Translations under genes and position numbers: made by a program
From: Schmidtea polychroa
Taxonomy: Eukaryota
Length of the DNA stretch: 64,000 nucleotides
Direction of reading: 5' to 3'
Assembly: GCA_044892525.1 (NCBI GenBank)
Contig: CM097886.1
Coordinates: 28,458,001 to 28,522,000 of the forward strand
The notes under the pieces: model-generated
The model's input: the letters and a program-made list of their open reading frames with translations, nothing else
Database searches by the model: none
Told to the model about the DNA's origin: nothing
Shown: in pieces, positions 1-37,552 of the stretch
How the letters are laid out: each line of letters opens with the position of its first letter
How positions within the stretch are numbered: position 1 is the first letter of the stretch

Positions 1-606
1 GAGATTTATGATCTTTTAAAGATTCCAACTGTTTCTGAAGCTTCCAATTCAACAAAAAATAATCAAATTAAAGTCTTTTCCAATAAAGACAGCGAAATCA
101 TTCTGCAAGGACTGTCAGAAAAGGAAGTAGACGATGAAGCAGGGATTTACGAGTTGTTAAAAATAGGCGAAATTAACCGAAAAGTTGGGTCGACTTTGTT
201 AAATATATCTAGTTCTAGATCACATTTGATATTATTCATTAAAATTAGCGGTACCAGTGAGGTTCAAGGAATCACTAGCAGAGGAACATTAACTCTGTGC
301 GATCTAGCTGGCTCAGAAAATATTTGTAAATCTGGCGCTACTGGCACCCGATTTCAAGAAGCAACGTCCATAAATAAATCTCTAACAACTCTTGGTAGAG
401 TTTTCGATTCTCTTCGAAAGAATCAAAAACCTGCTTACAGAGAAAGTAAATTAACTCACATTCTTAAACCGACATTGGGTGGAGATTCTAAATGTCTTTT
501 ATTCGTTAATGTTCGTTCCGAATCTGAGAATGTTCACGAAACGTTAGGGACTTTGTATTTTGGTCAGAATGCAATGCAAGTTATGCCAGAAAAATGTAAG
601 CATTGA
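1..606 (+). CDS. Kinesin motor domain, C-terminal part (kinesin-14/KIFC-like C-terminal motor; 5' end outside window)
   Basis: Frame +1 is open from base 1 (EIYDLL...) and has SSRSH, DLAGSE, INKSL, PAYRESKLT and LGGDSK motifs. The stop follows right after the motor domain. Confidence 0.9.
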   Translation, partial: EIYDLLKIPTVSEASNSTKNNQIKVFSNKDSEIILQGLSEKEVDDEAGIYELLKIGEINRKVGSTLLNISSSRSHLILFIKISGTSEVQGITSRGTLTLCDLAGSENICKSGATGTRFQEATSINKSLTTLGRVFDSLRKNQKPAYRESKLTHILKPTLGGDSKCLLFVNVRSESENVHETLGTLYFGQNAMQVMPEKCKH

Positions 607-1296: not shown

Positions 1297-1328
1297 TGTT
1301 GGGCTAGAACTGATTTCTAGATCCAAAG
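1297..1328 (+). mobile_element. First 32 nt of an older same-family LTR (insertion target), ending in TSD AAAG (1325-1328)
   Basis: TGTTGGGCTAGAACTGATTTCTAGATCCAAAG matches the LTR head in the opposite orientation. It continues as AAAGTTAGAATC... at 23299. Confidence 0.8.
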
Positions 1329-2359
1329 TGGTGGGTTACTGATGATCAAATATTTTGCTCTTTAGTGCTGTTACCAGCGTAACCCAAGATACAACATTGT
1401 TTACCGCTTGATACCCGTTGAATGATCAACGTTGGTACTGTATCAAGAGGGTGAGTGCTCGCAAAAAGTGAGCGCACTACTTGCACTGTAATTGTCGAGC
1501 ACTCTACTGGGTTCACGGACTATCGTTAGAAGATATATGTCCGATTTACGCAGGTCCCTTATTATAATTACTTTCTCAACTATGCCTATACAAACTTTCT
1601 ATCCTCAAACGATCATAAGTCATCAGGAATCATACATTAATCTATTAAAACCTGTTCATACAATACCACATCTAAAATGTTTGAATATAAATTAAGTGAA
1701 ACATAGCCATAGTTTATTAAACATACCTTAAGAAATTTTTGAGGATAATGAATTTAATTATAACACAATCAAAAAAAAAACAACTTATATATTAGTGAAC
1801 ATACAAATAAGGGTCAGAAATTTCACCAACCACAACAACAAAATATAATAACTTTACAAGAACCATGATTGTTTATGACCGCGTATTATTTGACTAAGCG
1901 TATTTCGCGGTGACTATGACTGTCCTAGTTGACCTACAATGACACTCCCCTTTGTTGAGCCCGGGTAGTTATAGAGAGATGGTTAGATCAACAATCAAAA
2001 TCTCACAATACATTTTTGTTAATATTATTTTTTTAATTCAAGTTAAATAAATTCAAAATACATCAATAACTGTTACAAAACAATTCCCTATATAATTTTA
2101 AGAGATACTTCTAGAAAATTCAAATTGACTCAAACTTTATTTATTTTTAAAAATTTGTTTTCTATTAATAATAGATTTTTTTTCTAGAATTTTAAGAAAA
2201 TTTTAATTAAAATTTATAATAATATTAAATTAATTTTACAATACTCGTTACTTACATTTTAAACAAAACTTATACGTCAGTTTGAAGTATTTTAAACTTG
2301 TTTTAACTAATTATTTTTTTTTTAACAAACCATTTTTTTTATATTAGTAATATTTTGCA

Positions 2360-3028
2360 ATGAAAATTTTATCAGTTTTTCTTTTCTAATCATTGTTTAC
2401 TATGTAATGTCAGCTACAGTTAATGAAAATAATTGCGAAGGTATTTGGCACTTATTTTTATTATATTTAAAAATTGTTCAGTTTGTGTTAAGTTTGTGAG
2501 ACGCCTGAAAGATAGTATAGATGGAGACGAAAGTACAAATATCGAAAATATTGAAAATAAATTCAAAAAGATGAGCAAAACAAGTAAGGGAAAAGAATAA
2601 AGTCTGGTAAGGTATTATAACTGATTAATATAAAATTGTAATTTATTTTTAGTGTTATTATATTGGAGGATTGGTAACATCTACTGCATATATTGTAAAA
2701 CATTTGTCTCAGCCTTTGAGTTGGGTTATGCCCGCTGAAAAAGTCTGAAAAACTAAAAGCAATTGATTCACAAATTTGTGAATTAAAATATGGTATGTTC
2801 AGTTAAGATTTTAAATATTAATTCAACTATTTTTCAGACAAACCTATTGATCTTACTGGTATTAATGTAAACAAAGCTCGCGTTAAAGATCTCAAAAAAT
2901 ATTAGAAAGCTGGGGTGAAGAATGTAAAGGTTGTACAGAAAAACTGATTTTATCCGATTAATAAACGAAAAATGCCCATTTATGATCTTAAAGCAGCCAA
3001 GCAAAGAAATAGATTCAGGATGTTGTAA
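2360..3028 (+). pseudogene. MANF: MANF/ARMET-like pseudogene, 4 exons, inside 3' LTR
   Basis: Exons 2360-2440, 2482-2606, 2653-2792, 2838-3028 with GT-AG introns. They give a signal peptide, CEVCVKF, CYYIGG, DSQICELKYDKPIDL, RVKDLKK and WGEECKGCTEK (CxxC). Several 1-2 nt deletions and a TAA at 2598-2600 disrupt it. Confidence 0.88.
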
Positions 3029-3989
3029 TTAAATAAAACATTAAAATTCCCTTTGATCGAATATATTTGTGAGAAACAATTTGGAATTATTTAATTGTGG
3101 AAATCTAAAAGAAATTCTGAAAGATATTTTAATATAAGTTTTCCATTTTCCAACCCCAGGAAATGTATTTCATCAGGATGGTCCATCAACTGAGCTCGAA
3201 GGACTTTTTGGTATGAATATGATTCAAAGAAACAATTATGTGAATAAATTTGATGATCGAAATCAATAAACTTAGTCTTTGTTTTTCTTTTTCTTCTTTT
3301 GATCTAGTTAAAAATAAATTTAGTCTCTTTGATTTAGTTAAAAATAAATCCAATAATTTTAATAAATTAATAAATGATTCTACTAAATTACTTCAGTAAA
3401 CTACTCTATCCTCGTTCCATCACCTTAAAGGGGTTGTGACCATCACATAACAGGGGTCTTGAGGGGGAAGGTTATCGTATTGTTATAAGGTTGTTTTATA
3501 AATCGGTATGTACATACACACATCCACTTATATATACACATACATATACACCCACACATATATACATATATGGATATAATTTAAATTGTTAATATTGATG
3601 TCGTTTTCAGGGGGGGGGTGTTACTAAAAATAGATTTTAGTGATTTTCCGTAATTTTATTGGAAGATAGGGCCATTGAAACTAAATTTAGAGATAGGGGA
3701 ATCCCAAAATCAATAATTTGTTTTATAATTTTATTTTTATGAAATAAAGATAATTATTTTAATAATATAATAATAATAATGATAATAGTAATAATAATAG
3801 TAAGAGTNNNNNNNNNNNNNNNNNNNNNNNNNNNNNNNNNNNNNNNNNNNNNNNNNNNNNNNNNNNNNNNNNNNNNNNNNNNNNNNNNNNNNNNNNNNNN
3901 NNNNNNNNNNNNNNNNNNNNNNNNNNNNNNNNNNNNNNNNNNNNNNNNNNNNNNNATAATGAATGTAAATTTATATTTTTATAGGATTA

Positions 3990-4760
3990 CTACATATGGG
4001 GGGGGATCATTTACGAAAATTTATGGAATTATTTTTTTGGTTCAAATATAATTTAACTCTATACGAAGATGATACAATTCAGTATACTTAAGGAATAGTT
4101 AATGGCTACATGAGTTGAAGGGGGGTCATTTATGAAAATTTTCAATTTATATTTTAAAATATAATATAAGTTAAATATATATTAAGATAAGTTAATTTAG
4201 TATGCTTAGGTAATGGGTAAAGACTGTATAATTTTGAGGGGGGTCATTCATAAAAATTTACAATTTATATTTTTAAATATTATATAAGTTAAATGTATAT
4301 TTAGGTAGTAGTTGATGACGATATGGTTTATTGGGGGGTCTTTGATGAAAAATTTTCAACTATGATTTTAAAGGTAATCCAAGTTAAGTATATATATTAA
4401 ATAGTCTAACTGAGTGTATCAGGTAGTGGTTGATGGTTATATGAATTAAGGGGGGTCATTTATCAAAATTTTCCAAATTTATATAGTAAAGATAATGTAT
4501 TAATGTATTTAGACAATAATTAATGGTTAAGTGATCTGAGGAATTATTAAGTTTGATAACTGCACGTATATAAGTTAATTTATTGCTATATATATTGTTC
4601 TCGACTAATGTATAGTTTGAGGGGGGTACTCATGAAAAAGGTAAGTTATACTTTTATAAGTTTCAAATATACATATATAAGTTAGATTATGAATCTGGAC
4701 ATTTGTTTCGACCATTACGTAACTTGGGGGGGGGGGTATTTATAAAACATTTACAACTTA
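3990..4760. repeat. Diverged ~100-170 bp tandem repeat built on G6-9 tracts (GGGGGGTCATTTATGAAAATT), ~7 copies; second copy at ~20320-21090
   Basis: G-run motifs at ~3997, 4119, 4237, 4333, 4450, 4620, 4726. Confidence 0.7.
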
Positions 4761-4789
4761 TTATAGATTATATTTTTATCGCTAACGTA

Positions 4790-5400
4790 GTTTATATTTT
4801 ATACTTTTATGACCAAATTAAGATTATAATTTATAGTCTTTCAGCTAATATAAGTTTATAATTTATATTTTTATGAAATTAAATTTATAGTTTATGTTTT
4901 TAAAGCTAATATAATTTTATAATTTATACTTTTGAGTTTATAATTTATATTTTATGAAGTTAAGTTAAATTTATAGTTTATATTTTAAAGCTAATATAAT
5001 TTTATAATTTATATTTTTATGAAGTCAAATTTATAGTTTATATTTTAGAGCCCATATAATTTTATAATTTATACTTTTAAGTTTATAATTTATATTTGGT
5101 GAAGTTCAATTTATAGTTTATATTTCCAAAGCTAATATAATTTTATAATTTATATTTTTATGAAGTTAAGATTATAATTTATACTTTTATAATTAACTTA
5201 GAGTTATAATTTATAATTTTTATCGTCAATACAAATTTGTAATTTATAAATTCAAGAAATTAAATTTATAATTTATACCTTTATAACTAATCATAATTTA
5301 TATTTTGAAGAAATTAAATCTATAAGTATAATTCACATTTTTATGAAATTGAGATGATAATTTATACTTTTATGGGTTTACGATTTGTATTTTTATAGTT
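4790..5400. repeat. AT-rich minisatellite (TTATAATTTATA(C/T)TTT units) in LTR; second copy at ~21120-21720
   Basis: Many tandem TTATAATTTATA variants. Confidence 0.7.
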
Positions 5401-7199
5401 AGTTTAGAGTCTATTCAATTTAAAATCCAAGTCTTGCTGATACGCATGTCGAACACCTTTATGAATACTATCACTACTAAATCAATCATTTTTAAAAAAT
5501 CTTTACTTTACACTATTACTAGAAAATTTATTTAAGGCATTTATAAATCTAGATTCGACAAACGCATAGGTAGAGTTGGTTCTTGATGATATTTAACCGT
5601 CTACATTAATTGTGAATTGTAGAGTTGTGATTAATTTAGGTCTGAGATCTACTCTGTTTATTAACCTTAGTGTATCGTATTGTGATGATTTTGGATGTAG
5701 ATTTTAACTATGTAAATTATTCATGCATTGAAAGTCGGGAAGAGTGCTTGCTTACACGGCCCCACTGTGGCCGCTACGACAAGCCCTACTGTTGTGTGGA
5801 GTCGAATCATATCGCTGTCGACCTTTAATACATAATTATTGCCATAACAGAGGGGTTTTATCGACATAACTCTATGGTAGAACCATAAAGTGGCCGACCT
5901 CTGATGACCGAACAAAAAGAAACCAATAATATTGATAAGTGCGTGCCAGGCAGTGGCCTGCAATCATTGTGAACTGTGTACTCATCGATGATAAAGTGCA
6001 TAGGTGCAGGGTTGGCTGGGATCTCGCTTCAAAATCAATGATAACCGACGATCTCACTCAAACCTACATTTCTATAGTTAAAAAGAAATAATGAAAACAA
6101 GGTTTCAATAATAATAACTTATAATTCACAATGAAATCGTTCTTACCTACAATCTCAGAAAAATCAAAACCAAAAATTTGGCATAAGAGTAAAAATATTC
6201 ATTTGCATTTTTTTCCTTTCTTCCAAAGTGACGAAATGTGTTAGTTTATATAGCCTCTGTTTGACGTGTAAGTATACATGCGTGCATTGATGCAGTAAAA
6301 CAAATTCAGATTATTTTAATTCTCGAACATTCGATTTTTAATTTTTATCGATTTTGATGGCGATTTTTCAGTAAGAATTTTTGTTTTTATTTTTGAAATT
6401 TTATTTTCGAATTACTTTTTATTAAATTTGCCTCCATGATGGATTTCAGCATTTCCAGAACATTCCATGCTAAATTTAATCTATTTCTTATTTTTAAATT
6501 GTTTTTTATGATTTCTTTTCTAAAATATTTATTTTTTAAACTAAAATATTTATTTTTTATAAATTTTATTGGGTCGTTTGGCGGTCATGATGGATTTCGC
6601 CATTTTTATGAATTGTTCTGGATTTTTATTCAAAATATCGATATAATTTTCTTTACGTAAGATTTTATGAAGATTTTCTTTAATTTTCTTTTTTAATTTT
6701 TACTAATCGCCTTTATTCGAATTTGTTTTTTGTTGTTTTATGTCTTTCGGTTATATTTGAGTAAGTTTTCGTGTAATACTTCTTGCTCGTGTTTTATTTT
6801 ATTTTTAATTCAGATGTTTTATTTTTGGGTATATTATCTCTCTATTATCATTGTTTACTTGGTGTTTTATATATTTTTATTTAAGTAAACTTAATGCTGG
6901 GTATGCGTGTTGTGTACAGACACATTTCGTCCCATTCCTAACTTTGGGTCTAGAAATCAGTTCTAGCCCAACATAAAACACTCGGGGGCCCATAAAATTG
7001 CGACCCGCAATTTAATCAAAAGTTCAAGATATAATTAGACAGAATTGGTTGCACTGTATTACAAGTGCCTACATGTAATTGGGTCCACGAGCTACAGGGT
7101 CGTGACCTCAATACCCACATACATAAAAAGTTTCTACTGATACACTACATGCTACAGATTGGTTTAAAGATGAAGAGAAAGAAGACCACGGTCGGTCCA

Positions 7200-9146: not shown

Positions 9147-10655
9147 TTATACCATTGTTGCCAGGGGACCTGAATGCAATGTGCGCATTCCCCCATATCT
9201 TTCATCCGTTAGTCGGTATATGTCAAATTCGTTTACACAATCGTCTAGGGTTTGTATTCTGAGTAATTCTTGCGTCCATAGTCTGCTTGACCTTGGATCT
9301 TCAATCGCTTCGTACTCTTCTGGATTCGGGTCTTCTGTTGGAATACCATATTCGGAATTCTCCACTTGTGGCCATCTTTTTCTGCCTTTAGGTTTTTGTT
9401 TACATATTTTGGAGGTTCTTATCCATTGGATTATTATTGATGTTATCACTGCACTCATTATTGCGCTAGCGATCCACATCATTTTAACGGTTATCAGTGT
9501 CTTGTTGTTGAATTTTCCTGTCGTCATCATCATTTTAGTTTCTGTTGTAGTTGCCTCCTGTGTTTTATTTTTCTTGAGCATCTGGTATAACTGTTTCGTT
9601 TCTTCTGCCGTTAGATGTTCGTTTCCTTTTGGCTTTTCCACTTCTTTTGGTTTTCTGGTTGCCAATGGTATGTTTATCAACCGTGGTCGTTGTCTGGTTA
9701 TTGCTTGGCATGAACTTAAATCGCTTCCGTTTTTAAGAACGCATATGTGGTATCGTCCCTTTCTTTCTCCTATTGTCATTTTAACTTCTGCACCTTTGTC
9801 AAGTAGTGTTTCTATGCAGTCGACTATTCCTGTCCTGTTTAGTACACATACTCTTACTATTGGTTCTTCACCTTGGTTTCTGACCGTGATTACTTCTTCT
9901 CTTTTCTTGTTGAATTCGACATTTACTAGTACTTCTCGTCTCTCATCTTTGATCCATATTACTGTTGTGTTTTTCTTGGTTTGGTGCTGTCCTCTTATCA
10001 TTCCCGTACGGGATTGTTTCTGGGGTTTCTTAATTGCCGGTTTGATCCTTGGTTGATATCTTTTACTAGCCATACTTTTTGGCCTGCTTTTTATTTGCGC
10101 GGTTTTAACTGCTTTACATACCACTATTGCCTGGGTACCTGCGCATACCACCATGTTGGTGTTTGGTTTTACGTTTGTCCAAAAAAATTCGCGATCTCGT
10201 TTCATGTCTACCGTTATACATATGTCTTCGTCATCTCTAAAACATATTTGCGTTGTTGGCAAATTTCCTTTATCTATTATTTCGATACCTTCCATTGTAG
10301 TTTTAATTGCGACATGTACTCCGGTTTCGTTAGCTCTTTCCAATTCTTTTTCTTCTGATGTTATGTCTTCGCAAATGTTGTAGTCTCCGCATAATTCAGG
10401 TTCTCCATTTTGACTATTGAAAATCCTCCCTTTTGTTATCGTTCTAAAATCACAACTTACTCCGGTTCCTTCCATCAATTGGATGCATATCCCGACCGCG
10501 TTTCCGTTGTTGCCGCTGACTTTTATCATGAATAGTTCGCCTTCTTTCAGATTTCCTCTCGTAATTCGCGTATTTTTCGTTTCTGTTAGGCAAATTGACG
10601 TTAGTATTATTAGGATAATTTATAGTAGGAGTGACTGGTTTAGATTCTTCCGCAT
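9147..10655 (-). CDS. Env-like type I membrane glycoprotein (signal-like peptide interrupted by TAA at 10620-10622)
   Basis: The 460 aa ORF extends upstream without stops to MRKNLNQSLLL*IILIILTSICLTET. It has 6 closely spaced Cys pairs, several N-x-T/S sites, a TM segment MWIASAIMSAVITSIIIQWI, then a basic stop-transfer stretch and a Tyr-motif tail. Confidence 0.7.
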
Positions 10656-13600
10656 TACTATGTTATGCATTGGGGACTTTCGTTTGTCGTTCTCTGTTTC
10701 ATTATGTTGGTTGTCTTCACTTTGGTCTGAGTTGTCCTCAGTATCCTTCAAGTCTTCGTCGTCATCTTCTGACTCCTTGTCTTCTTTATTATCTCGTTCG
10801 CCTGAGTTCCCATTTATGTTGTTCCTTTCATGGTTCCCGTCGTCTTCCTCATTTTTGTCGTTATGGTCTTTGTCATTTTTTCCACTCCGGCCTTTTCCAA
10901 AAATGTCGTCTTCGACATTTGATGTTTTGATCATTTCTTCGCGTTTATTTAAATGACTATTCTTCAGTGATTCTCTTACTATTGTCACTTTTCTGTTGGA
11001 TGGCCATGGTAATTCTTGTTCACATCTGATTCCTTCGTATTCACCATATTTTGATATCAACTCCGTTGCTCGTTTATATTCAAATCCCATAATTTCAGTA
11101 TCCCGTATGTCTTTGACAAACTGTTTCATTAGCTGCGGCCATCTTTCCCTCAATCTGTTAATATATTTCTTCGCTTGATCGATTGCTTGTTTTACTAAGA
11201 TTATTTGATTTTCCTTCCTTATCTTTTGTTCGGTCTTCTCTATTTCTGGTTCCACTTCATTGTTGAATATCTGTTGGATTTTCCTCAGTATTTCCGTTAC
11301 TGATGTGTTGTCTCTGTTTTTCTTTAAGATTAAGATATTAACTTCGTTTGACCATCCCATCACATCTACTAGATGTATGCTCATTTTAACTTTATAACAA
11401 TTGTCGTATAGCAGTTTATTCTTTTCCTGTACCCAATTATACAGTTCATCCATATTTGTTACTTTTAATTCAGTAATCTGCATCTGAGTTTCGGGGTGTT
11501 GAATACTCACCCGGCATTGATCTGGCTCAACTTCTTTCAATTTTCCTTTATATTTCGTCACCAAATCTTTCCATGTTGCCGTTAATATACCTCCTTCCCA
11601 CTGGTATGCTTCAGTTATCAGTTTTATACATTTTCTGTATGTTGGTTCGTTGATATAGCTTTCATTTCGTTCTCTTTCCGATACCGTGTCGGAAATTTCC
11701 TCAAATATTTCCTCATCGTCATTTTCTATCGGTGATTCCATATCGTCGCTCTCAGCCTCTTCGTTATTTTGAGATGTTCCTTGTTCATTATTTTCATCAC
11801 TTGATTGAAATAATTCACTTCTCAGGCTACTCACCGCACTTTTCTCGTCTTCCTGGTCCGTCTGATCATTCTGTATTTGTCTCAGCATGTTTATATTGGC
11901 TCTGTTACTTGGTTCTTTCTTTTCGAACCACTCATTTTTCCTGAACCAGTTGTCTTTTACTTTTTCTTTTACTTGCTCATCCGTTAAATTTGGTTCTTCT
12001 CTTCTAATTCTATCTTCAATTTTTTGTAGTAATACCCTCTGAATTCGATTCTTTGTAACAATCTCGTTGCTTTTTGGTTCGTGCCCTGTTTCATCTCTTC
12101 TTCTTCGTCTCTTTTCTTTTTCTTCTTTGGTGAACCTTTGTATTATTTTTATTTTATCCTCGCTACTCAGTTCTGTCAATTGCTCCGTCAATTGATGTGA
12201 CCCATTTTCTTTTATCACTTTTGTCTCGTTGATTACGGCCATATCGCTCCCTTCCTTGTTAACACACTGCTCCGCAGTGTGCGGTTCCCCTTTGTTCATT
12301 AATCTCATCATATTTATTCTTCCGGTGTTGGTTTCTCGCTTTTTCCATCTTTTTTGAATTTCTCTGGCTTTTTCGTTTAGTGGTCTCTGCCCTTCGATTC
12401 GTTGCTGATCTTTTTGTTCTCTTGTTGGTCGTTTTTGGATATCCTCTGGTATCCGTTGGATCATCTTTTTCAACTGTCCTATTTCCTGCATGATGTTGAC
12501 TTGTATATTTTGACTTGACTCGTTTGCTCTTGGTTGATTATGCTTTGTCCTCATCGCGCATTCTCTCGCCACATGTCCAAGTTGGTTGCAACTGTAGCAG
12601 GTTCTAGTCCTTCCTCCTCTCATCGACATCATTGGTCCTCGGCATATATTTTCTGTGTGACCCCTTTTACCGCAATTTTGGCACATCCTTGTCTTATAAC
12701 ACTCGTTGCTCCAATGTCCTAGTCGTTGACATATGTTACACTTCCGATTATTGTTCTCGTTGTTCCTGAAATTATTAGTGTAAAATTGAATATTACCTCT
12801 GTTATCTGGATTTGTCGTTTTTGGCGCCTTGAACAACTGTTGCGATTCTGAGATAAATTGATTCATTCCTAGATTTCCATTGTTGGTTTGATTAATTTCG
12901 GTTGTCGTTGTTGGTGTTGTAGCTATTGGTACTGCTGCCATTGCTGCTACTTGTACTGGAGTCAAGTAGTTTTCACATTTATTAGCGATTTTTAATGCTT
13001 CCTCGAGCGTGTCTGGTGCTCGGCACCCCACTGTTGCTCGTATGTCCTTTCTTTTCATACCCTCTACGAATACGGCTATTATCTTGTCTTCCGGAACTGT
13101 TTGATTTGAGTCGAATGCTTCTTTTGCCAGTCGTCTTAATTCACATGCATATGGTGCGTTTGACTCATTGTATTTCTGCTTTCGATGCAGAAAATCCAAC
13201 ATTTTGCGATTTACTTCCCTTTTGCTACCGAATGTTTTTATTAAAAAATTCTTTATTGATTTCCATGTTTTTAGTTTTGTTGCATCACACTTTGCCTCTA
13301 AATATACATCTTGTGCACTTCCTCTTAAATATAATGGTATTCGCTCTCGTACGACTATGTCTGGCCAGTGACATATCGTAATATATACCTCGAATTCTTT
13401 TATAAACGTTTCTACTTCATTAATATTCCCATCGAATGGTTCTCCTCGAAATCTTTCTCTAAATTCTCCAACATTGACGTTGACATGGTTTATCTCGGGT
13501 GTGTATGTCGACTCTGACCCATTCGGGTTGTTCACTTGGTTTCCGTCTAACATTATATCTCGACACAAACTTGTTATGCCTGAACTACTATCTTCCTTGT

Positions 13601-14069
13601 CTGTTGGTTTGATATCAGTTACCGGATATAATTCGTTTCTTTTAATATCGTCGCTGTTTTCACTGTCGTTGGTTAAGCTGTCTGATTCAAATAATGTTTT
13701 CACTGACGCTGGTCTCTTATTGATTCTTCTGTTTCTCTTGGCTCTTTGTCTCCCTGCGTTTCCTAATAAACTAGAGCCTCCTTTGCTCTGCGATCTCGTT
13801 CGATTGGCTTTATTATCAATTTTTCTTGCTTTAATAATCTCTTTTGAATTTCACTGTGTTTCGTTGGCCAACGCTTTAATTTTCCTCTTGGTATTTAATT
13901 TGACTTTGTTTACCTTTCTTCTATCCTCGTTTGATTCTCTTGATTCTTTGCTTGGTTTCTTTTGAATTTTTGATTTCTCTTTATTACTCTTGAATTCTTG
14001 GCTTCTATTGATTTCCTTCTGAATGGTTTGCTTTATTCTAAAATAATTAACACTCCTAGTACATATCAT
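10620..14069 (-). CDS. Gag-like protein with three CCHC zinc knuckles and a long charged C-terminal extension (one in-frame TGA at 13851-13853)
   Basis: Capsid-like PFDGNINEVETFIKEFE...LYLRGSAQDVY; knuckles CNICQRLGHWSNEC, CQNCGKRGHTENIC, CYSCNQLGHVAREC. The 72 aa ORF 13851-14069 is in the same frame. No protease D(T/S)G, RT or IN motif seen. Confidence 0.88.
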
Positions 14070-14554: not shown

Positions 14555-15065
14555 TTTACCATCGGCTCCCTGGCCGGTTTAATCAACTCTCTTATTTCAT
14601 TTAAATCATTTCACTCAATTACCATCGGCTCTCTGGCCGGTTTAATCAACTCATTTTAATCCCATGAAGTCTTTTACGACTCCTCGACGCCTGGGCTTTT
14701 ACACCGTTACGCCATATAATCCATTATTACCCATCAACGCTTTGGTTTGTTAGACCTCCACGTCGGCATCGGCTTCCGGCCGGTTTAATCATAATCTGAA
14801 GTCTTTTACGACTCCTCGACGCCTGGGCTTTTACACCATTACGCCATATTATCCATTATTTCCCATCAACGCTTTGGTTTGTTAGACCTCCACGTCGGCA
14901 TCGGCTTCCGGCCGGTTTAATCATAATCTGAAGTCTTTTACGACTCCTCGACGCCTGGGCTTTTACACCATTACGCCATATTCGCGGTCTTCGGTCCCTG
15001 ACCGGTTTCAAATGCCCTAAATGAGGTTTCTTCAACCCCTCGACGCCTTCGGTTTTTACACCTAC
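14555..15065. repeat. GC-rich tandem repeats in the pre-gag leader (132 bp x ~2.5 plus 62 bp x 2)
   Basis: CCATCAACGCTTTGG at 14731 and 14863; GAAGTCTTTTACGACTCCTCGACGCC three times; CCATCGGCTC...GGCCGGTTTAATC at ~14559 and ~14621. Confidence 0.85.
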
Positions 15066-17660: not shown

Positions 17661-17678
17661 ATCCCGGCTGAGCCCCCA
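17661..17678 (-). promoter_or_regulatory. Primer-binding site for tRNA-Pro
   Basis: Minus strand TGGGGGCTCAGCCGGGAT matches the canonical tRNA-Pro PBS TGGGGGCTCGTCCGGGAT at 16/18 positions, 8 nt inside the 5' LTR. Confidence 0.85.
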
Positions 17679-18718
17679 AATTTGTATGGTGGGTTACTGA
17701 TGATCAAATATTTTGCTCTTTAGTGCTGTTACCAGCGTAACCCAAGATACAACATTGTTTACCGCTTGATACCCGTTGAATGATCAACGTTGGTACTGTA
17801 TCAAGAGGGTGAGTGCTCGCAAAAAGTGAGCGCACTACTTGCACTGTAATTGTTGAGCACTCTACTGGGTTCACGGACTATCGTTAGAAGATATATGTCC
17901 GATTTACGCAGGTCCCTTATTATAATTACTTTCTCAACTATGCCTATACAAACTTTCTATCCTCAAACGATCATAAGTCATCAGGAATCATACATTAATC
18001 TATTAAAACCTGTTCATACAATACCACATCTAAAATGTTTGAATATAAATTAAGTGAAACATAGCCATAGTTTATTAAACATACCTTAAGAAATTTTTGA
18101 GGATAATGAATTTAATTATAACACAATCAAAAAAAAAACAACTTATATATTAGTGAACATACAAATAAGGGTCAGAAATTTCACCAACCACAACAACAAA
18201 ATATAATAACTTTACAAGAACCATGATTGTTTATGACCGCGTATTATTTGACTAAGCGTATTTCGCGGTGACTATGACTGTCCTAGTTGACCTACAATGA
18301 CACTCCCCTTTGTTGAGCCCGGGTAGTTATAGAGAGATGGTTAGATCAACAATCAAAATCTCACAATACATTTTTGTTAATATTATTTTTTTAATTCAAG
18401 TTAAATAAATTCAAAATACATCAATAACTGTTACAAAACAATTCCCTATATAATTTTAAGAGATACTTCTAGAAAATTCAAATTGACTCAAACTTTATTT
18501 ATTTTTAAAAATTTGTTTTCTATTAATAATAGATTTTTTTTCTAGAATTTTAAGAAAATTTTAATTCAAAATTTATAATAATATTAAATTAATTTTACAA
18601 TACTCGTTACTTACATTTTAAACAAAACTTATACGTCAGTTTGAAGTATTTTAAACTTGTTTTAACTAATTATTTTTTTTTTAACAAACCATTTTTTTTA
18701 TATTAGTAATATTTTGCA

Positions 18719-19387
18719 ATGAAAATTTTATCAGTTTTTCTTTTCTAATCATTGTTTACTATGTAATGTCAGCTACAGTTAATGAAAATAATTGCGAAGG
18801 TATTTGGCACTTATTTTTATTATATTTAAAAATTGTTCAGTTTGTGTTAAGTTTGTGAGACGCCTGAAAGATAGTATAGATGGAGACGAAAGTACAAATA
18901 TCGAAAATATTGAAAATAAATTCAAAAAGATGAGCAAAACAAGTAAGGGAAAAGAATAAAGTCTGGTAAGGTATTATAACTGATTAATATAAAATTGTAA
19001 TTTATTTTTAGTGTTATTATATTGGAGGATTGGTAACATCTACTGCATATATTGTAAAACATTTGTCTCAGCCTTTGAGTTGGGTTATGCCCGCTGAAAA
19101 AGTCTGAAAAACTAAAAGCAATTGATTCACAAATTTGTGAATTAAAATATGGTATGTTCAGTTAAGATTTTAAATATTAATTCAACTATTTTTCAGACAA
19201 ACCTATTGATCTTACTGGTATTAATCTAAACAAAGCTCGCGTTAAAGATCTCAAAAAATATTAGAAAGCTGGGGTGAAGAATGTAAAGGTTGTACAGAAA
19301 AACTGATTTTATCCGATTAATAAACGAAAAATGCCCATTTATGATCTTAAAGCAGCCAAGCAAAGAAATAGATTCAGAATGTTGTAA
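18719..19387 (+). pseudogene. MANF: MANF/ARMET-like pseudogene, second copy inside 5' LTR
   Basis: Same exons, introns and disabling lesions as 2360-3028; differs by GTA/CTA and one G/A. Confidence 0.88.
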
Positions 19388-20127
19388 TTAAATAAAACAT
19401 TAAAATTCCCTTTGATCGAATATATTTGTGAGAAACAATTTGGAATTATTTAATTGTGGAAATCTAAAAGAAATTCTGAAAGATATTTTAATATAAGTTT
19501 TCCATTTTCCAACCCCAGGAAATGTATTTCATCGGGATGGTCCATCAACTGAGCTCGAAGGACTTTTTGGTATGAATATGATTCAAAGAAACAATTATGT
19601 GAATAAATTTGATGATCGAAATCAATAAACTTAGTCTTTGTTTTTCTTTTTCTTCTTTTGATCTAGTTAAAAATAAATTTAGTCTCTTTGATTTAGTTAA
19701 AAATAAATCCAATAATTTTAATAAATTAATAAATGATTCTACTAAATTACTTCAGTAAACTACTCTATCCTCGTTCCATCACCTTAAAGGGGTTGTGACC
19801 ATCACATAACAGGGGTCTTGAGGGGGAAGGTTATCGTATTGTTATAAGGTTGTTTTATAAATCGGTATGTACATACACACATCCACTTATATATACACAT
19901 ACATATACACCCACACATATATACATATATGGATATAATTTAAATTGTTAATATTGATGTCGTTTTCAGGGGGGGTGTTACTAAAAATAGATTTTAGTGA
20001 TTTTCCGTAATTTTATTGGAAGATAGGGTCATTGAAACTAAATTTAGAGATAGGGGAATCCCAAAATCAATAATTTGTTTTATAATTTTATTTTTATGAA
20101 ATAAAGATAATTATTTTAATAATATAA

Positions 20128-20187
20128 TAATAATAATGATAATAGTAATAATAATAGTAAGAGTGGTGATGTTATTGGTAACAATGC

Positions 20188-20241
<54 letters not shown>

Positions 20242-20286
20242 CAATAATAATAATAATAATATTAATAACGGTAATAATAATAATAA
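20128..20286. repeat. (AAT)n microsatellite within LTR (N gap at the equivalent site in the other LTR)
   Basis: Direct reading; explains the poly-Ile ORF 20136-20387. Confidence 0.95.
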
Positions 20287-23200
20287 TGAATGTAAATTTA
20301 TATTTTTATAGGATTACTACATATGGGGGGGGGGGATCATTTACGAAAATTTATGGAATTATTTTTTTGGTTCGAAATATAATTTAACTCTATACGAAGA
20401 TGATACAATTCAGTATACTTAAGGAATAGTTAATGGCTACATGAGTTGAAGGGGGGTCATTTATGAAAATTTTCAATTTATATTTTAAAATATAATATAA
20501 GTTAAATATATATTAAGATAAGTTAATTTAGTATGCTTAGGTAATGGGTAAAGACTGTATAATTTTGAGGGGGGTCATTCATAAAAATTTACAATTTATA
20601 TTTTTAAATATTATATAAGTTAAATGTATATTTAGGTAGTAGTTGATGACGATATGGTTTATTGGGGGGTCTTTGATGAAAAATTTTCAACTATGATTTT
20701 AAAGGTAATCCAAGTTAAGTATATATATTAAATAGTCTAACTGAGTGTATCAGGTAGTGGTTGATGGTTATATGAATTAAGGGGGGTCATTTATCAAAAT
20801 TTTCCAAATTTATATAGTAAAGATAATGTATTAATGTATTTAGACAATAATTAATGGTTAAGTGATCTGAGGAATTATTAAGTTTGATAACTGCACGTAT
20901 ATAAGTTAATTTATTGCTATATATATTGTTCTCGACTAATGTATAGTTTGAGGGGGGTACTCATGAAAAAGGTAAGTTATACTTTTATAAGTTTCAAATA
21001 TACATATATAAGTTAGATTATGAATCTGGACATTTGTTTCGACCATTACGTAACTTGGGGGGGGGTATTTATAAAACATTTACAACTTATTATAGATTAT
21101 ATTTTTATCGCTAACGTAGTTTATATTTTATACTTTTATGACCAAATTAAGATTATAATTTATAGTCTTTCAGCTAATATAAGTTTATAATTTATATTTT
21201 TATGAAATTAAATTTATAGTTTATGTTTTTAAAGCTAATATAATTTTATAATTTATACTTTTGAGTTTATAATTTATATTTTATGAAGTTAAGTTAAATT
21301 TATAGTTTATATTTTAAAGCTAATATAATTTATATTATATTTTATGAAGTCAAATTTATAGTTTATATTTTAGAGCCCATATAATTTTATAATTTATACT
21401 TTTAAGTTTATAATTTATATTTGGTGAAGTTCAATTTATAGTTTATATTTCCAAAGCTAATATAATTTTATAATTTATATTTTTATGAAGTTAAGATTAT
21501 AATTTATACTTTTATAATTAACTTAGAGTTATAATTTATAATTTTTATCGTCAATACAAATTTGTAATTTATAATTTCAAGAAATTAAATTTATAATTTA
21601 TACCTTTATAACTAATCATAATTTATATTTTGAAGAAATTAAATCTATAAGTATAATTCACATTTTTATGAAATTGAGATGATAATTTATACTTTTATGG
21701 GTTTACGATTTGTATTTTTATAGTTAGTTTAGAGTCTATTCAATTTAAAATCCAAGTCTTGCTGATACGCATGTCGAACACCTTTATGAATACTATCACT
21801 ACTAAATCAATCATTTTTAAAAAATCTTTACTTTACACTATTACTAGAAAATTTATTTAAGGCATTTATAAATCTAGATTCGACAAACGCATAGGTAGAG
21901 TTGGTTCTTGATGATATTTAACCGTCTACATTAATTGTGAATTGTAGAGTTGTGATTAATTTAGGTCTGAGATCTACTCTGTTTATTAACCTTAGTGTAT
22001 CGTATTGTGATGATTTTGGATGTAGATTTTAACTATGTAAATTATTCATGCATTGAAAGTCGGGAAGAGTGCTTGCTTACACGGCCCCACTGTGGCCGCT
22101 ACGACAAGCCCTACTGTTGTGTGGAGTCGAATCATATCGCTGTCGACCTTTAATACATAATTATTGCCATAACAGAGGGGTTTTATCGACATAACTCTAT
22201 GGTAGAACCATAAAGTGGCCGACCTCTGATGACCGAACAAAAAGAAACCAATAATATTGATAAGTGCGTGCCAGGCAGTGGCCTGCAATCATTGTGAACT
22301 GTGTACTCATCGATGATAAAGTGCATAGGTGCAGGGTTGGCTGGGATCTCGCTTCAAAATCAATGATAACCGACGATCTCACTCAAACCTACATTTCTAT
22401 AGTTAAAAAGAAATAATGAAAACAAGGTTTCAATAATAATAACTTATAATTCACAATGAAATCGTTCTTACCTACAATCTCAGAAAAATCAAAACCAAAA
22501 ATTTGGCATAAGAGTAAAAATATTCATTTGCATTTTTTTCCTTTCTTCCAAAGTGACGAAATGTGTTAGTTTATATAGCCTCTGTTTGACGTGTAAGTAT
22601 ACATGCGTGCATTGATGCCGTAAAACAAATTCAGATTATTTTAATTCTCGAACATTCGATTTTTAATTTTTATCGATTTTGATGGCGATTTTTCAGTAAG
22701 AATTTTTGTTTTTATTTTTGAAATTTTATTTTCGAATTACTTTTTATTAAATTTGCCTCCATGATGGATTTCAGCATTTCCAGAACATTCCATGCTAAAT
22801 TTAATCTATTTCTTATTTTTAAATTGTTTTTTATGATTTCTTTTCTAAAATATTTATTTTTTAAACTAAAATATTTATTTTTTATAAATTTTATTGGGTC
22901 GTTTGGCGGTCATGATGGATTTCGCCATTTTTATGAATTGTTCTGGATTTTTATTCAAAATATCGATATAATTTTCTTTACGTAAGATTTTATGAAGATT
23001 TTCTTTAATTTTCTTTTTTAATTTTTACTAATCGCCTTTATTCGAATTTGTTTTTTGTTGTTTTATGTCTTTCGGTTATATTTGAGTAAGTTTTCGTGTA
23101 ATACTTCTTGCTCGTGTTTTATTTTATTTTTAATTCAGATGTTTTATTTTTGGGTATATTATCTCTCTATTATCATTGTTTACTTGGTGTTTTATATATT

Positions 23201-23298
23201 TTTATTTAAGTAAACTTAATGCTGGGTATGCGTGTTGTGTACAGACACATTTCGTCCCATTCCTAACTTTGGGTTTAGAAATCAGTTCTAGCCCAACA

Positions 23299-24230
23299 AA
23301 AGTTAGAATCGTGACAAAATGTGTCGGAACATAGCATGCATACCCAGAATGAAGTTTACTTAAAATGAAATATATAAACATCAAATAAACAAATAAAATA
23401 GAAAAGCATAACACACAAAAATTAAAAATATCCAAATAATAATAAATTAAAAACCAAGCAAGAAGTATTGGACGAAAACCTACTCAAATATAACCAAAAC
23501 ACATAAAACAACCAAAACAAATTCGAATAAAAGTGGTTAGTAAGCATTAAAAATTAAATTAAAGAAAATTTCAATAAAATTCTACTTAAAGAAAAATTAT
23601 CCAGAACAATCCATAAAAAATGGCGAAATCCATCATGGCCGCCAAACGACTTAATAAAAGTTAGAAAATAAATATTTAAGTTTTAAAATAATAAAAATTC
23701 TAAAAAGAATATGAGATAGATTAAATTTATCATGGAATCGTCTGAAAATGCCCATATCCATCAATGAAGCAAATTTAGTAAAAAACAATTCAAAAATAAA
23801 AACAAAAATTATGACGTCAAAATTGATAAAAATTAAAAATCGGATGTTCTAGAAATAAAATAATTCAAATGTGTTTTACTGCACTAATGCACGCACACAA
23901 ACTTGCACACTAAAATAGGGTATATAAACTAAGACATTTCGTCACTTTTCATTCTTACTCTTATGCCAAAATTTTGATTTTGATCTTTCTAAGATTGAAA
24001 GTAGGGACGATTTTGTTGTGAATTATAAATTATTATTATTTAAACCTCGTTTTCATTTTTTCAATATGCTAAAAAGGTGTTGGTTTGAGTGAGATCGTCG
24101 GTTATCATTGATTTTGAAGCAAGATCCCAGCCAACCCTACACCTATGCATCTTTTCGTTGTTGGGTCCAAAACTCAGCAACGGCTAGCGAACCCAAGTCA
24201 ATAAAATGAATTTTTCTTTCTGGTCGCCAA
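23299..24230 (+). mobile_element. Older diverged LTR head of the same family (remainder of the insertion target)
   Basis: Reverse-complement similarity to ~22230-23265, e.g. GAGTGAGATCGTCGGTTATCATTGATTTTGAAGC and CTTATGCCAAA. Confidence 0.8.
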
Positions 24231-24364: not shown

Positions 24365-24693
24365 TCGTGGGGTACTGATGATTAGATATTTTGCTTTTCA
24401 TGCTGTTACCAGCGCAACCCAGGATATAATATTGTTTTACCGCTTGATACCCGTTGAGCAATCAAAGTTGGTACTGTATCAAGTGGGTGAGTGCTCGCAA
24501 AAAGTGAGCGCACTGATTGCACTATAAATGTCGGGCACTCTTTGGGTCCACGGACTATCGATAGAAGATATGTGTCCGATTTACTCAGGTCCCTTACTAA
24601 TATTACTTTCCCTATACAAACTTTCCGTCATTAAACGATCATAAGTCATAGTAAAACATACGTTGATTTATTAAAAACCTGTTCATACAGTAC
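24365..24693 (-). mobile_element. Third, diverged copy of the LTR tail (R/U5-like module)
   Basis: Direct similarity to 1329-1672 and 17687-18030 (CTTGATACCCGTTGA, GAGTGCTCGCAAAAAGTGAGCGCACT, CGGACTATCG, CCTGTTCATACA). Confidence 0.85.
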
Positions 24694-24698
24694 GCTTA

Positions 24699-25163
24699 TC
24701 ACATCTTAGATATTTGAGTCACTTTTGATCTTTCTTGTTCTTGCTCTGTCACCCAGTCTCTCTTCAATATTTCGCGAGTATTTCGCCCTAACCGCTTGCG
24801 CTTCGGTTTGCTTGACTGTGCCGGTGGATATATTTCGGCCAGTTCTATGTGCAGTGGGCGAATCTGAGCTGCTATAGTCTCGTTGATGAATTTCTGGTTC
24901 AACTTGACTTCTAGCTTGCGTATCTGCAACTTCAACGCACGGATTTCTATTTGATCTTGTTCCGCCTGGGTCTGCAGTTGTATGATCTGGGCTGTTTGTT
25001 TTTTCATTTCAGCCGGACTAAACCAAGTGCCTTCGAATTCCCGGCACCTCCCTTTGAGTTTTTCGACCCTAACTCGAAGGTCTTCCGCTTGTTGTTGTGC
25101 CTGCTCGTGGTCCTTCCGTAAATTTTCAAATAGCTTGAACACTGAATAGAAATAATTGTTCAA
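24699..25163 (-). CDS. Coiled-coil ORF (154 codons, basic KPKRKRLGR patch) abutting the diverged LTR tail; unknown product
   Basis: GC-richer open frame with E/Q/K/L heptad-like composition. There is no ATG start (M-Y-T-stop in frame just upstream), and a possible acceptor TTCTATTCAG near 25140. Confidence 0.4.
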   Translation of the reverse strand: MNNYFYSVFKLFENLRKDHEQAQQQAEDLRVRVEKLKGRCREFEGTWFSPAEMKKQTAQIIQLQTQAEQDQIEIRALKLQIRKLEVKLNQKFINETIAAQIRPLHIELAEIYPPAQSSKPKRKRLGRNTREILKRDWVTEQEQERSKVTQISKM

Positions 25164-25707
25164 TCACGTATACATGAGGGAAATCATTAAATCAATATAA
25201 ATATTTCGATTAAAATAGATGTGAGGTGTGATATCACCTCTCTGCCATACAAATTCAGGTGTATACAGAAAACAGTGAGTCCAACTATTCGATATTGCAA
25301 TAATTTATTCAAATACCACAAAGATAGAATCAAAAAAGAGAACGCCTGAGAACAAATTGAGAGCAGCCTTATCAACGATTACTGCAAATCTTGATCGCCT
25401 GTGCTCAGTTAAGCAAGTTCACATTTCTCATTAAACATCTTTTCATATTATATTGATTTAAATAATAAATAAATATTATATAAACATTGGTTTTTTCTTT
25501 GATTTACCTCTAAAATTTCTTGATTTTTGTTAGGTGTACCTTGAACACAAAAAGCTGGCGAAGCACTAATTTACAACAAACCAGAAAGTTAAATATTTCA
25601 CTGATAAATTCACAAAGAAAAAATAATTGAACAAAATTAGAAACAATTTTATTCTTAAAAAAAAACTAGAAAATATTCCCTTATATAACTTGATTCATAG
25701 AAAAGGT

Positions 25708-28446
25708 TCATTGAGTAAACGATTGAATTTTCGCTGTAAGATCATCACAATATTTGGGTGACCTGTGTTTATTGCGCACCTTGGCAATCTCGGATATCGT
25801 GACGCATGGACTTAGTTTCCCAATCACAACCAAGGCTTCATAGACTGCCAATTGGACATCTCGGTTATTGTCATCCAAATGGATTAATAATCCACTATTC
25901 AGCTCTTCAACGTGGGCTTTATAGAGACTGGCATCGAATTTGTTACTAAATGCATTCACCCAGCTCATAATGATTTTAGTTGTGATGATTCTGATCTGAT
26001 AGACATTNNNNNNNNNNNNNNNNNNNNNNNNNNNNNNNNNNNNNNNNNNNNNNNNNNNNNNNNNNNNNNNNNNNNNNNNNNNNNNNNNNNNNNNNNNNNN
26101 NNNNNNNNNNNNNNNNNNNNNNNNNNNNNNNNNNNNNNNNNNNNNNNNNNNNNNNNNNNNNNNNNNNNNNNNNNNNNNNNNNNNNNNNNNNNNNNNNNNN
26201 NNNNNNNNNNNNNNNNNNNNNNNNNNNNNNNNNACTTCTACTACCTAATAAAAACTCACAAAGAGAGCCCTGCTATCAAAATTAGACCTATAGTATCCAA
26301 CACAAATGGATCAACAACTAAAACAAGTTGGCTCCTTTCAAAGATCTTAAAACCATTATCGGACACTGCATCACATCATCTTCAGAAAATGAATACAGAG
26401 AATATTATCAAACTTCTTACTGTTATCCTTGAGAATAAATATTTTACCTTTGAACAAAAGATTCATAAACAAGTTAAAGGTCTGCCTATGGGTTCTAGAA
26501 ATCATCTTTATGGATAACCTCGAACGACAAAAACTAAGGACCATACAATCCATCGGTTTCTATGCAAGATATGTAGATGATATCTTTTTCACGACCAAAA
26601 GCAAAGAAGTGCAAGAAAAATTTCATAGATTTAATGCGCCTCACCGATATATTAAATTTGAAATCGATTATCGGGGCGAAGATGGATCCCACAATCTACT
26701 GGACTTAAAAATTAAAATAGAAACAGATACTCCAACATGCGGATTCTACAGAAAACCAGCTCGCAAAGAAATATTTATGTAACAAAGATCAGCGCTTCCA
26801 TACTTACAGAAAGCACACGTCATAAAAAAAGAGAAACAAAAGATAGCCAATCGATGTACTGAAGAAAACAAAAACTTCAAACAACAATTAAACTTCAATA
26901 AAATCCTACACCAGCGGTTCTCAACCCGTGTTCCACGGAACATCAGTGTTCCGCGATTACGCTTCCAGTGTTCCGTGAAAAAAAATGACATTTTATCCTT
27001 AAATTTGCATTTAAGATACATATCATCAAAAACCTCAATTAATTTTTTTATAAGATGATTCAATAAGAAAGCCGTTACACAGATATATAAACATACAACT
27101 ATAAAAGTGTTTTTATTGCTTGTTTTTGTTGCGCGTGGTATTTTCTTTGCTTATAAGAAGGCATTGTTTACATTCACGACAGATTTATAGTAATTTGTGA
27201 TTGTGGGTCACTCATTGTGGGCAAGTATTTTTTTGTCAGTGCTCCGCGTAAAAAAAATCATGTGAATGGTGTTCCGCGCTTCTATATTAATTGAGAGCCA
27301 CTGTCCTACACATACACGAATATCAAGGTAAGGAAATTGAAAGAATGAATTCTAGTCCAAAAAGATCTAGGGAAATAATACAAACTGCGAGACACCGAAG
27401 AAAATATGCTTCCGAAAAAACTTTGTCTAGTGAATAACGTGCAATGTATATACATTTGAAGTATGATCAGTATCTTGCACTAAAGAATTAAAGAATATCT
27501 AGATTCTGGTGGCAAATCCTCGGTATACATACATCTCCAACAATGTCATTCAAGGAACGAAAGAAAAAATATTTCAACCGAAATCTTAGCCAATGGAAAC
27601 ATCCAAAAGAAAAATGTCAGATTGAAGGAAGCAATTCTCATCATAAACCGACGGCCAACAATCAACACTAAGGAAGAGATCAATGAAATCACCAGTCTGA
27701 TTGACCTTGAGAATATTTTCTTTTTAAAAATAATATAAATAACCAGATCAAATTTTAAGAATCATTAGGAATAAAAATAAAAATATAATTATCTTTAAAA
27801 CATTTTAAAATGCGTATATATATAGTTATTATCAAATATAATTTTTATAAATATTTTATAATATTATCTCTCTATATATAAAAAAACTAAGGGTCCCCTC
27901 CATCCGAATTTTATTTTTTTTAAAATTTTTTTAAAACTTTTTTTTAACTTTTTTAAAATTTTTTTTTAAAATTTTTTTTTAAAATTTTTTTTGTCAAATA
28001 AATAAAATACTTTTTTATTAGTTTGGCTGTTTTGGCGCAAGTCGTGTTAGATGTTTAATGGGTTTACGTCTAATCCATACCTGAACATCATTAACCCCAC
28101 GTTCTAACGGGGTTGGTGAAGCGAAGCGAACAGGGTCAGAGCCGCTAGGATATTAAAAAAAGTTAGGAACCGGTTGAAAAACTTTAAAAATTTTTTATTT
28201 TGAATTTTGAAGTAAATTTAATTTGAGAATTTTTGAAATTTTTTTAGATTTATTATATTTTGAACCAATTAATGACAATAGAAAATAGAAATAAAAGAGA
28301 AGATCAAAAAGCATTTGAAAATTGAAGCAACTAAATTCCAGGAAATTTATAATGGCTATTTTTATAGTTGAAAGTTTTTTCATTTGTATTAAATATATAC
28401 TTCGCAGTAAAATGCTTAAATTATCATTTAAGTGTTTAACAATAGC

Positions 28447-28525
<79 letters not shown>

Positions 28526-37500: not shown

Positions 37501-37552
37501 TTATTTGGACAAATAAACGTGAAAATTCAGTGGATAATTCAATATTCGACAT
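25708..37552 (-). CDS. DNAAF5: Dynein axonemal assembly factor 5 (HEATR2), 7 exons
   Basis: complement(join(25708..25995,28543..28941,31969..32388,32440..32697,34348..34610,36551..36661,36712..37552)) has GT-AG introns and totals 2580 nt (859 aa). Motifs include EPSEEIR, LKDQMDF...RPNLGCR, LPNLIWQSGRTAEALR and LLIHLDD. Confidence 0.88.
26234..27720 (+). mobile_element. Penelope-like retroelement RT/GIY-YIG remnant in DNAAF5 intron
   Basis: FYYLIKTHK...IRPIVS, KQVKGLPMGS, YARYVDDIF, LLDLKI and FYRKP fragments with frameshifts. Confidence 0.8.
26912..27303. mobile_element. hAT (Charlie/Buster-type) MITE nested in the Penelope remnant
   Basis: TIRs CAGCGGTTCTCAA / TTGAGAGCCACTG; 8-bp TSD TCCTACAC. 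Confidence 0.9.
27867..28148 (+). mobile_element. Probable non-autonomous Helitron
   Basis: 5' TCTCTCTATATATAAAA after an A; 3' GCGAAGCGAACAGGGTCAGAGCCGCTAG. The next base is G rather than the usual T. Confidence 0.5.
28448..28524. repeat. (AAT)n microsatellite in DNAAF5 intron
   Basis: Direct reading. Confidence 0.95.
29104..29862. mobile_element. hAT (Charlie/Buster-type) non-autonomous element
   Basis: TIRs CAGTGGTTCTCAAA / TTTGGGAACCACTG; TSD CTCCAGTA / CTCTAGTA. Confidence 0.85.
30440..30900 (-). mobile_element. Possible MULE transposase remnant
   Basis: Minus-strand LLGQHDHWFNDGTY resembles the W-x-x-DGT(F) catalytic motif; otherwise degraded. Confidence 0.3.
31520..31800 (+). mobile_element. 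Penelope-like GIY-YIG endonuclease remnant
   Basis: RVTCNWCNATYIGET and EALII..FNPKI fragments. Confidence 0.65.
33106..33681. mobile_element. Tc1/mariner MITE with Stowaway-type TIRs
   Basis: TA|CTCCCTCCGTCCGGTAATATGGTATACATTT ... AAATGTATACCATATTTCCGGACGGAGGGAG|TA. Confidence 0.9.
35029..35232 (-). mobile_element. Tc1-like transposase remnant
   Basis: ILQHDNTFCY and WSMYLPDLSNIENL resemble QQDNAPCH and WPxxSPDLNPIENL. Confidence 0.6.

Follow-up and report, generated by a model that had tools for sequence, protein, structure and literature searches.

The window analyzed here, i.e., the whole 64,000-nt stretch of Schmidtea polychroa DNA, contains a young LTR retrotransposon, both of whose LTRs hold a 1.35-kb stretch of the host MANF locus that is antisense to the element and keeps its three introns. 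We consider it probable that this piece is a passenger pseudogene that was captured unspliced, owes its antisense orientation to a filter of polyA signals and splicing, decays neutrally, and, as part of the element RNA, has occasionally paired with spliced sense RNA, a pairing that leaves edits and can remove introns. The chief new points are a serially used antisense slot, an editing footprint that appears to respect borders, and the loss of introns from an antisense cargo.

The element occupies positions 1329–23301 on the minus strand, is 22 kb long and gypsy/Burro-related, and is complete but lacks pol. Repeat comparison and inspection of the ends placed its 3′ LTR (5.65 kb) at 1329–6976 and its 5′ LTR (5.61 kb) at 17687–23301; both have TG..CA ends, and a 4-bp target-site duplication lies at 1325–1328 on the left and 23302–23305 on the right. 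The two LTRs differ by 9 substitutions in 5492 aligned bases (0.16%), and the insertion is therefore recent. A primer-binding-like site on the minus strand (17661–17678), 8 nt behind the 5′ LTR and possibly like a tRNA-Pro site, was found at the same place in two further elements, giving three elements in total. The inner ends at 6977–6996 and 17661–17686 carry a similar short motif, each 8 nt from its LTR. The 80 nt preceding the 3′ LTR contained no purine run that could represent a polypurine tract.

The gag frame (10620–13850, minus strand) matched Retrotrans_gag and zf-CCHC and closes at a stop that is absent from most family copies; an in-frame continuation of 490 aa (9147–10619, minus strand) completes the family frame of 1571–1572 aa. 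The family has 578 candidate copies, and the 87 copies scored mostly had a single frame of approximately 1570 aa, which is interrupted by the stop in the window copy. No family was assigned to the 490-aa frame: Pfam, the atlas, and phmmer on representatives (six weak matches, mostly ankyrin proteins) gave nothing usable. Over 400 aa, the gag shares 37% identity with its counterpart in a Burro-type element that encodes a fusion protein, PR, RT, RNase H, IN, ankyrin and MATH domains, a layout that PMC6431247 describes for planarian Burro1. None of the fusion protein, PR, RT, RNase H, or IN was found in the window or in the family part of three other interior-intact elements. With a gag related to one of Burro layout and no pol, the element was therefore read as a non-autonomous relative of Burro. 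Two long LTR pairs (30.5 and 33.6 kb) were checked as candidates for an autonomous MANF-bearing element and rejected, as their extra length consists of other inserts. Two elements (L097:4800-5792 with L100:5296-6288, and L106 with L108) have extra inserts in both LTRs, antisense to the element, in which a 331-aa frame, possibly a DNA transposase, and RT-like frames were found.

Several further features surround or lie within the element. It was inserted into an older related LTR of opposite orientation, whose beginning lies at 1298–1328 (plus strand) and which continues at 23302–24154 (75% identical); the resemblance of 1298–1328 to the LTR end is therefore not a terminal inverted repeat but the start of this split older LTR. 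Another related LTR end (24367–25163, 83% identical) lies beside a 154-aa frame like those in other Burro-like LTRs, and a 132-bp tandem repeat (14623–14981) lies in the leader upstream of gag. The flanking genes are the 3′ end of a kinesin gene (1–606, plus strand) and a DNAAF5-like HEAT-repeat gene (approximately 25700–37582, minus strand). Rfam returned a single low-score miRNA match, which was taken as chance. Elsewhere, at G000:C1:199.54–199.57 Mb and C2:77.91–77.94 Mb, three MANF-bearing LTRs with 16-kb spacing suggest tandem elements with a common LTR.

The first-pass annotation had described four exons and three GT-AG introns of a MANF-like gene on the plus strand of both LTRs, with identical frameshifts and stop, and comparison with the host gene confirmed each of these points. 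The extent that it gave (2360–3028) does contain MANF, but the captured piece is larger (1791–3140, plus strand, by alignment to the host locus), comprising 570 bp of upstream sequence, the gene, and approximately 140 bp beyond the host stop; position 3028 is not the native stop, which was lost in a 35-nt deletion. As gag and the primer-binding-like site lie on the minus strand and MANF on the plus strand, MANF is antisense to the element.

Host comparison resolved the plus-strand structure as exon 1 with the signal peptide and a frameshift near codon 7 (2360–2440), intron 1 of 41 nt (2441–2481), exon 2 with a stop at codon 66 (2482–2606), intron 2 of 46 nt (2607–2652), exon 3 with a frameshift near codon 100 (2653–2792), intron 3 of 45 nt (2793–2837), and exon 4 with three 1-nt deletions (2838–3011), whose final codons and native stop are gone in the 35-nt deletion. 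All three introns are GT-AG. The exon pieces of the window matched ARMET_N with E values of 2e-8 (over the cut-off) and 2.5e-4 (under it), and ARMET_C weakly (E = 0.099). The second copy, in the 5′ LTR (18149–19499, plus strand), is offset by +16359 and carries the same breaks: 2 nt are inserted near codon 7, codon 66 is a stop, there are deletions near codons 100, 135, 150, and 160, and 35 nt are missing after 3011. Within the gene, the two copies are 2 substitutions apart.

The intact parent postulated in the first-pass annotation was found at locus L031, which encodes 178 aa with a KDEL-like end, shares the same three introns, has non-LTR flanks, and exceeds the Pfam cut-offs for both ARMET_N and ARMET_C; capture of a host MANF gene with its introns, in antisense, was thus borne out. 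It was the single intact gene among the loci examined. A related LTR beside it was considered as the border of the capture and rejected: this 5.3-kb solo LTR has its own 4-bp duplication and interrupts the captured stretch, which resumes beyond it, indicating a later insertion. The solo LTR (L064:5803-L065:1086; G000:C2:64440803-64446086) belongs to a related family and lies approximately 420 bp upstream of the MANF start codon, from where it may influence MANF expression. A Burro-type element (L061–L063, G000:C2:64.405–64.433 Mb) lies 8 kb upstream of the captured stretch. Its frames encode a fusion protein, PR, RT, RNase H, IN, ankyrin, and RING-MATH, making it a candidate for the kind of helper that would supply pol.

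MANF candidates in the genome numbered 249 by DNA search and 238 by Pfam search. We scored 81 distinct copies, a non-random sample consisting of the top matches to the window, the host gene, and Pfam, from which 9 duplicate loci were dropped. MANF is thus carried by other LTR copies, as had been anticipated, and the intact cargo suggested there was found in none of the 81: no LTR copy combines an unbroken frame with a signal peptide and a KDEL-like end. Codon 66 is a stop in 79 of the 81 (the remaining two are deleted or cut there), and later breaks are common to 74, 69, 55, and 33 copies. The breaks are not consensus errors at the window locus, since each is found in 33 to 79 of the 81 copies and the assembly that contains them also contains an unbroken host gene. 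The breaks in both LTRs and the stop in 79/81 copies also uphold the earlier claim that inactivation preceded the last jump. With this stop so widespread and no copy intact, the gene was therefore dead early and spread as a passenger; inactivation probably occurred at or near the founder, before the spread. Identity of the cargo to host MANF is 94.6–98.6% (80 copies). Among 139 distinct exon variants, 41 are synonymous vs 34.8 expected under neutrality (P = 0.13), and decay of the cargo looks neutral by this comparison; counting against neutrality, pN/pS over all variants is 0.57, prior to correction for the mutation spectrum. A tree was built from 80 rows, without L042 and L052; its bootstrap was unsettled, and it served for rough grouping only.

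The position occupied by MANF has held other host genes. Sister LTRs taken from gag-frame matches without a known MANF match (n = 20) carried no MANF, and 11 of the 20 carried a piece of NDUFA7 (complex I B14.5a; Pfam over the cut-off) from the same left junction; NDUFA7 LTR candidates number 308 in the genome. In the window LTR, MANF is flanked by the tail of this cargo (3141–3426, plus strand, comprising the end of the last exon and the 3′ region, by alignment) and by a remaining head of approximately 16 nt near 1773–1788. The NDUFA7 head and the 280-bp tail on either side of MANF therefore indicate that MANF replaced the middle of an older cargo. Comparison of the junctions revealed 5 nt shared at the right MANF junction and 2–3 unclear nt at the left. 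Other sisters carry a 960-bp piece of a Sec61α-like frame, whose source (L192:1159-2412, 99% identical) is an intronless, highly divergent frame of 417 aa with a PDB match (E = 1e-17), no Pfam match, and one 90% relative in the protein collection. Both the NDUFA7 and the Sec61α-like pieces are antisense to the element, as MANF is. The order of capture would be NDUFA7 and then MANF, with the Sec61α-like piece youngest as judged by identity. Piece C (L126 type), a putative host piece also carried by sisters and with approximately 145 candidates, contains a 40-nt intron-like stretch; no host parent was found among 12 divergent matches examined, nor any match in Pfam, PDB, or the protein collection.

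Each of the three identified cargos spans the 3′ end of a gene and terminates 60–140 nt past its stop codon, a hint of some connection with transcription. The first-pass annotation had placed the capture at the DNA level. The unspliced template that this implies is likely, but unspliced read-through RNA fits it as well, and we hold the choice between genomic DNA and such RNA to be nearly even; the three identified cargos are all genes, which would not be expected from pure DNA repair. The pieces might instead have been kept for a promoter, as the region upstream of each cargo would be a housekeeping or ER-stress promoter transcribing divergently into the conserved LTR end, the primer site, and gag. 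In both the MANF and the NDUFA7 piece, the start codon is preceded by approximately 570–640 bp of upstream sequence that faces the conserved LTR end, the arrangement that promoter piracy calls for. We nevertheless consider this explanation highly improbable, as the upstream region is missing from 11 of the 81 MANF LTRs (mosaics), several of them in two-LTR elements, and the Sec61α-like cargo starts mid-frame.

The first-pass annotation had also proposed that antisense orientation protects the introns from removal. MANF agrees with this: all introns are kept in 79/81 copies, precise intron loss was seen in none, and an exact-pattern search of the whole genome found intron 1 present at 215 places and absent at 0. 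NDUFA7 does not: it is antisense too, yet both introns are gone from 35 of its 36 distinct copies (39 loci less 3 duplicates). In the host gene for NDUFA7 (L207, L219), the two introns measure 44 and 43 nt, and one LTR copy with the family junctions (L212, L220, L221) retains both. Loss was precise in the one copy aligned base by base, and an apparent intron in young NDUFA7 cargos was rejected as a local duplication. The simplest order is that NDUFA7 was captured with its introns and lost them later. As the element never transcribes the NDUFA7 piece in the splicing direction, we infer that spliced sense RNA was involved in this loss. Refresh of the exons from mRNA was assessed in the intron-less copies; 4 of 6 have 2–6 private changes in the exons vs 13–21 upstream, which is compatible with refresh and would equally fit selection. 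In two LTRs, L198 (1149–1529) and L199 (G000:C2:19.04–19.05 Mb), intron-less NDUFA7 differs from the younger copies in that its 127-aa frame is open and passes the Pfam cut-off, which possibly reflects recent refresh from mRNA or selection.

Pairing between element RNA and sense RNA would also account for a pattern of substitutions in the MANF cargo. In the MANF exons, T>C changes (A>G on the element RNA) occurred at 31 of 158 sites and A>G changes at 15 of 206 (P = 7e-4), whereas the two types were alike outside the host transcript (56/484 vs 73/497, P = 0.16). Six distinct T>C clusters were found in 78 copies, five of them in MANF exons or the 3′ region and one at the start of the NDUFA7 tail; there were none in the introns, the upstream region, or the LTR ends of these copies, and the other three transition types combined gave 3 clusters. 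Two edited lineages start at the first T of exon 4, with intron 3 spared. In L035, 25 of 40 T were changed over 101 nt, followed by none of 31 over a further 74 host-aligned nt; the border lies 17 nt after AATAAA, the hexamer from which the MANF polyA site was inferred. L035 also has one T>C in a 12-nt stretch absent from the host and two more where the NDUFA7 tail starts. Edited sites were depleted of a 5′-G neighbor (3/58 vs 39/240, P = 0.03), and a preference for 3′-G was not significant (P = 0.19). Avoidance of 5′-G is the preference of ADAR (PMC8586724), and planarians possess an editing ADAR2 (PMC8797187). Because the edited span tracks the exon and polyA borders of the captured gene, it points to an intermolecular duplex. 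These data suggest that the clusters are an ADAR-like footprint of element RNA paired with spliced MANF RNA, although the sense partner could be the transcript of an LTR-borne copy instead of the host mRNA. The antisense LTR transcript envisaged in the first-pass annotation thereby gains what may be fossil support.

We weighed a non-ADAR origin of the clusters, i.e., another mutator, fold-back with a neighboring inverted copy, or assembly error, an explanation that overlaps the other readings. The independent events are few: the edited clusters represent about 4 lineages, and the L034 and L050 groups have 3 sites in common. Moreover, 3 of the 11 T>C clusters in NDUFA7 cargos precede the presumed mRNA (L207 positions 14–49 and 95–143) and 1 follows it, and 21 Sec61α-like loci had no T>C cluster. 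The non-host parts yielded 1 small cluster in approximately 162 kb of copy-bases, in control copies younger than the edited ones. Such an origin is very unlikely in our judgment, since the clustered changes are of one type (A-to-G) on one strand with 5′-G depletion, their borders fall at the start of exon 4 and 17 nt past the polyA signal, and no fold-back partner for the edited region was found within the element. The edited haplotype of L035 also occurs at 3 places on 3 contigs, 99–100% alike, with the next match at 86%.

We therefore return to the passenger pseudogene and to the steps that it would involve. An LTR with an antisense NDUFA7 piece had most of that piece replaced by 1.35 kb of MANF, with a putative 5-nt microhomology at the right. 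The template was presumably unspliced, whether genomic DNA or read-through RNA. Spread would be limited to antisense captures, because a sense piece adds a polyA signal and splice sites to the element RNA. The MANF copy lost its function at capture or shortly thereafter and decayed in an approximately neutral manner while being amplified, with its introns, to about 215–250 LTRs; pol was presumably supplied in trans by a Burro-type helper. As the cargo is part of the element RNA, this RNA may sometimes pair with spliced, polyadenylated MANF RNA, as the pattern of edits suggests; the paired element RNA would be hyper-edited from A to I by ADAR, reverse-transcribed, and spread. The same pairing with mRNA may account for the precise loss of the NDUFA7 introns. 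A benefit to the element or the host is not required.

The same observations raise the possibility of adaptive antisense targeting, as with TART-A and nxf2, in which element RNA or piRNAs would lower MANF, NDUFA7, and Sec61α-like messages, and cargos would be swapped as they diverge from the host. In its favor are the apparent footprints of pairing with spliced sense RNA, the 95–99% identity of the cargos to the host (near enough to target), and the serial replacement in one slot with every cargo antisense; two of the three identified cargos are ER proteins, planarian LTR elements are described as piRNA-rich in PMC8532177, and there are precedents (PMC7785250, PMC13534243). However, the cargos are housekeeping genes and not known silencing genes, no cargo region is conserved beyond neutral expectation, the polyA filter by itself yields an antisense bias, and pairing and editing might equally harm the element; we consider such targeting quite unlikely. 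The slot has taken at least three cargos, MANF among them, and this argues against a MANF-specific role. In a broader version, the slot would be an exchangeable antisense device whose element RNA routinely pairs with host mRNA, so that the mRNA is co-edited, rewrites the LTR by precise removal of introns and renewal of exons, and is knocked down to the advantage of the element. This version we hold tentatively, as an unlikely one. If true, hundreds of LTRs in planarian stem cells would act in trans, as an antisense system directed at MANF, NDUFA7, and the Sec61α-like gene.

The passenger pseudogene that we favor has partial counterparts in known systems. The giant gypsy-like planarian elements Burro and GYPSM1 share with the window family a related CCHC gag (37% identity to that of a Burro-type neighbor), very long LTRs, and a taste for host-like sequence; as described in PMC6431247, they carry host-like domains in frame within a polyprotein, whereas the window family lacks PR, RT, RNase H, IN, and the fusion protein, and its host pieces lie in the LTR, antisense, intron-bearing, and dead. 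LTR-mediated retroposition by template switch (Tan et al. 2016, PMC5131818) and maize Bs1 are alike in the replacement of element sequence by host sequence, here at a putative microhomology, and in the spread of a non-autonomous chimera. The cargo described by Tan et al. is a partial mRNA without introns that replaces an internal ORF; in contrast, the MANF cargo is unspliced, includes the upstream flank, and lies antisense within the LTR. Drosophila TART-A with nxf2 and the telomeric elements with aub and piwi pieces (PMC7785250, PMC13534243) resemble the window family in having a host piece, possible antisense RNA, and recurrent or replaced captures. As presented in those sources, they are non-LTR elements that target the piRNA pathway and come with piRNA data, whereas the window family has housekeeping genes and, instead, a genomic editing footprint. 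The avian retroviruses RAV-1 and ALV (PMC8586724) likewise show fixed, clustered A-to-G changes on the element RNA that avoid 5′-G and are inherited via reverse transcription; the edits of the window family differ in following the exon and polyA borders of a captured gene, and its edited copy spread in the germ line. A literature search found no paper on the family or on MANF in planarian LTRs, although Grohme 2018 or Repbase may describe the family. MANF or ARMET occurs 0 times in the accessible text of PMC8532177, and the relevant passages of PMC8532177, PMC11410931, and PMC8797187 do not name a MANF cargo.

Gene capture by retroelements is known, whereas a duplex between transposon RNA and the captured host message has usually only been proposed. 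Here, the genomic copies appear to record such a duplex, their edits keeping to the exon and polyA borders of the host gene. The NDUFA7 cargo suggests that introns can be lost precisely even from a captured piece whose transcription by the element always runs against the splicing direction. With approximately 250 near-identical MANF pseudogenes in this genome, gene annotation, the mapping of reads, and RNAi of MANF will all be confounded. Finally, the family offers a dated series of captures in an animal in which RNAi of ADAR and PIWI is routine, and regulation of host genes by captured pieces is thus directly testable.
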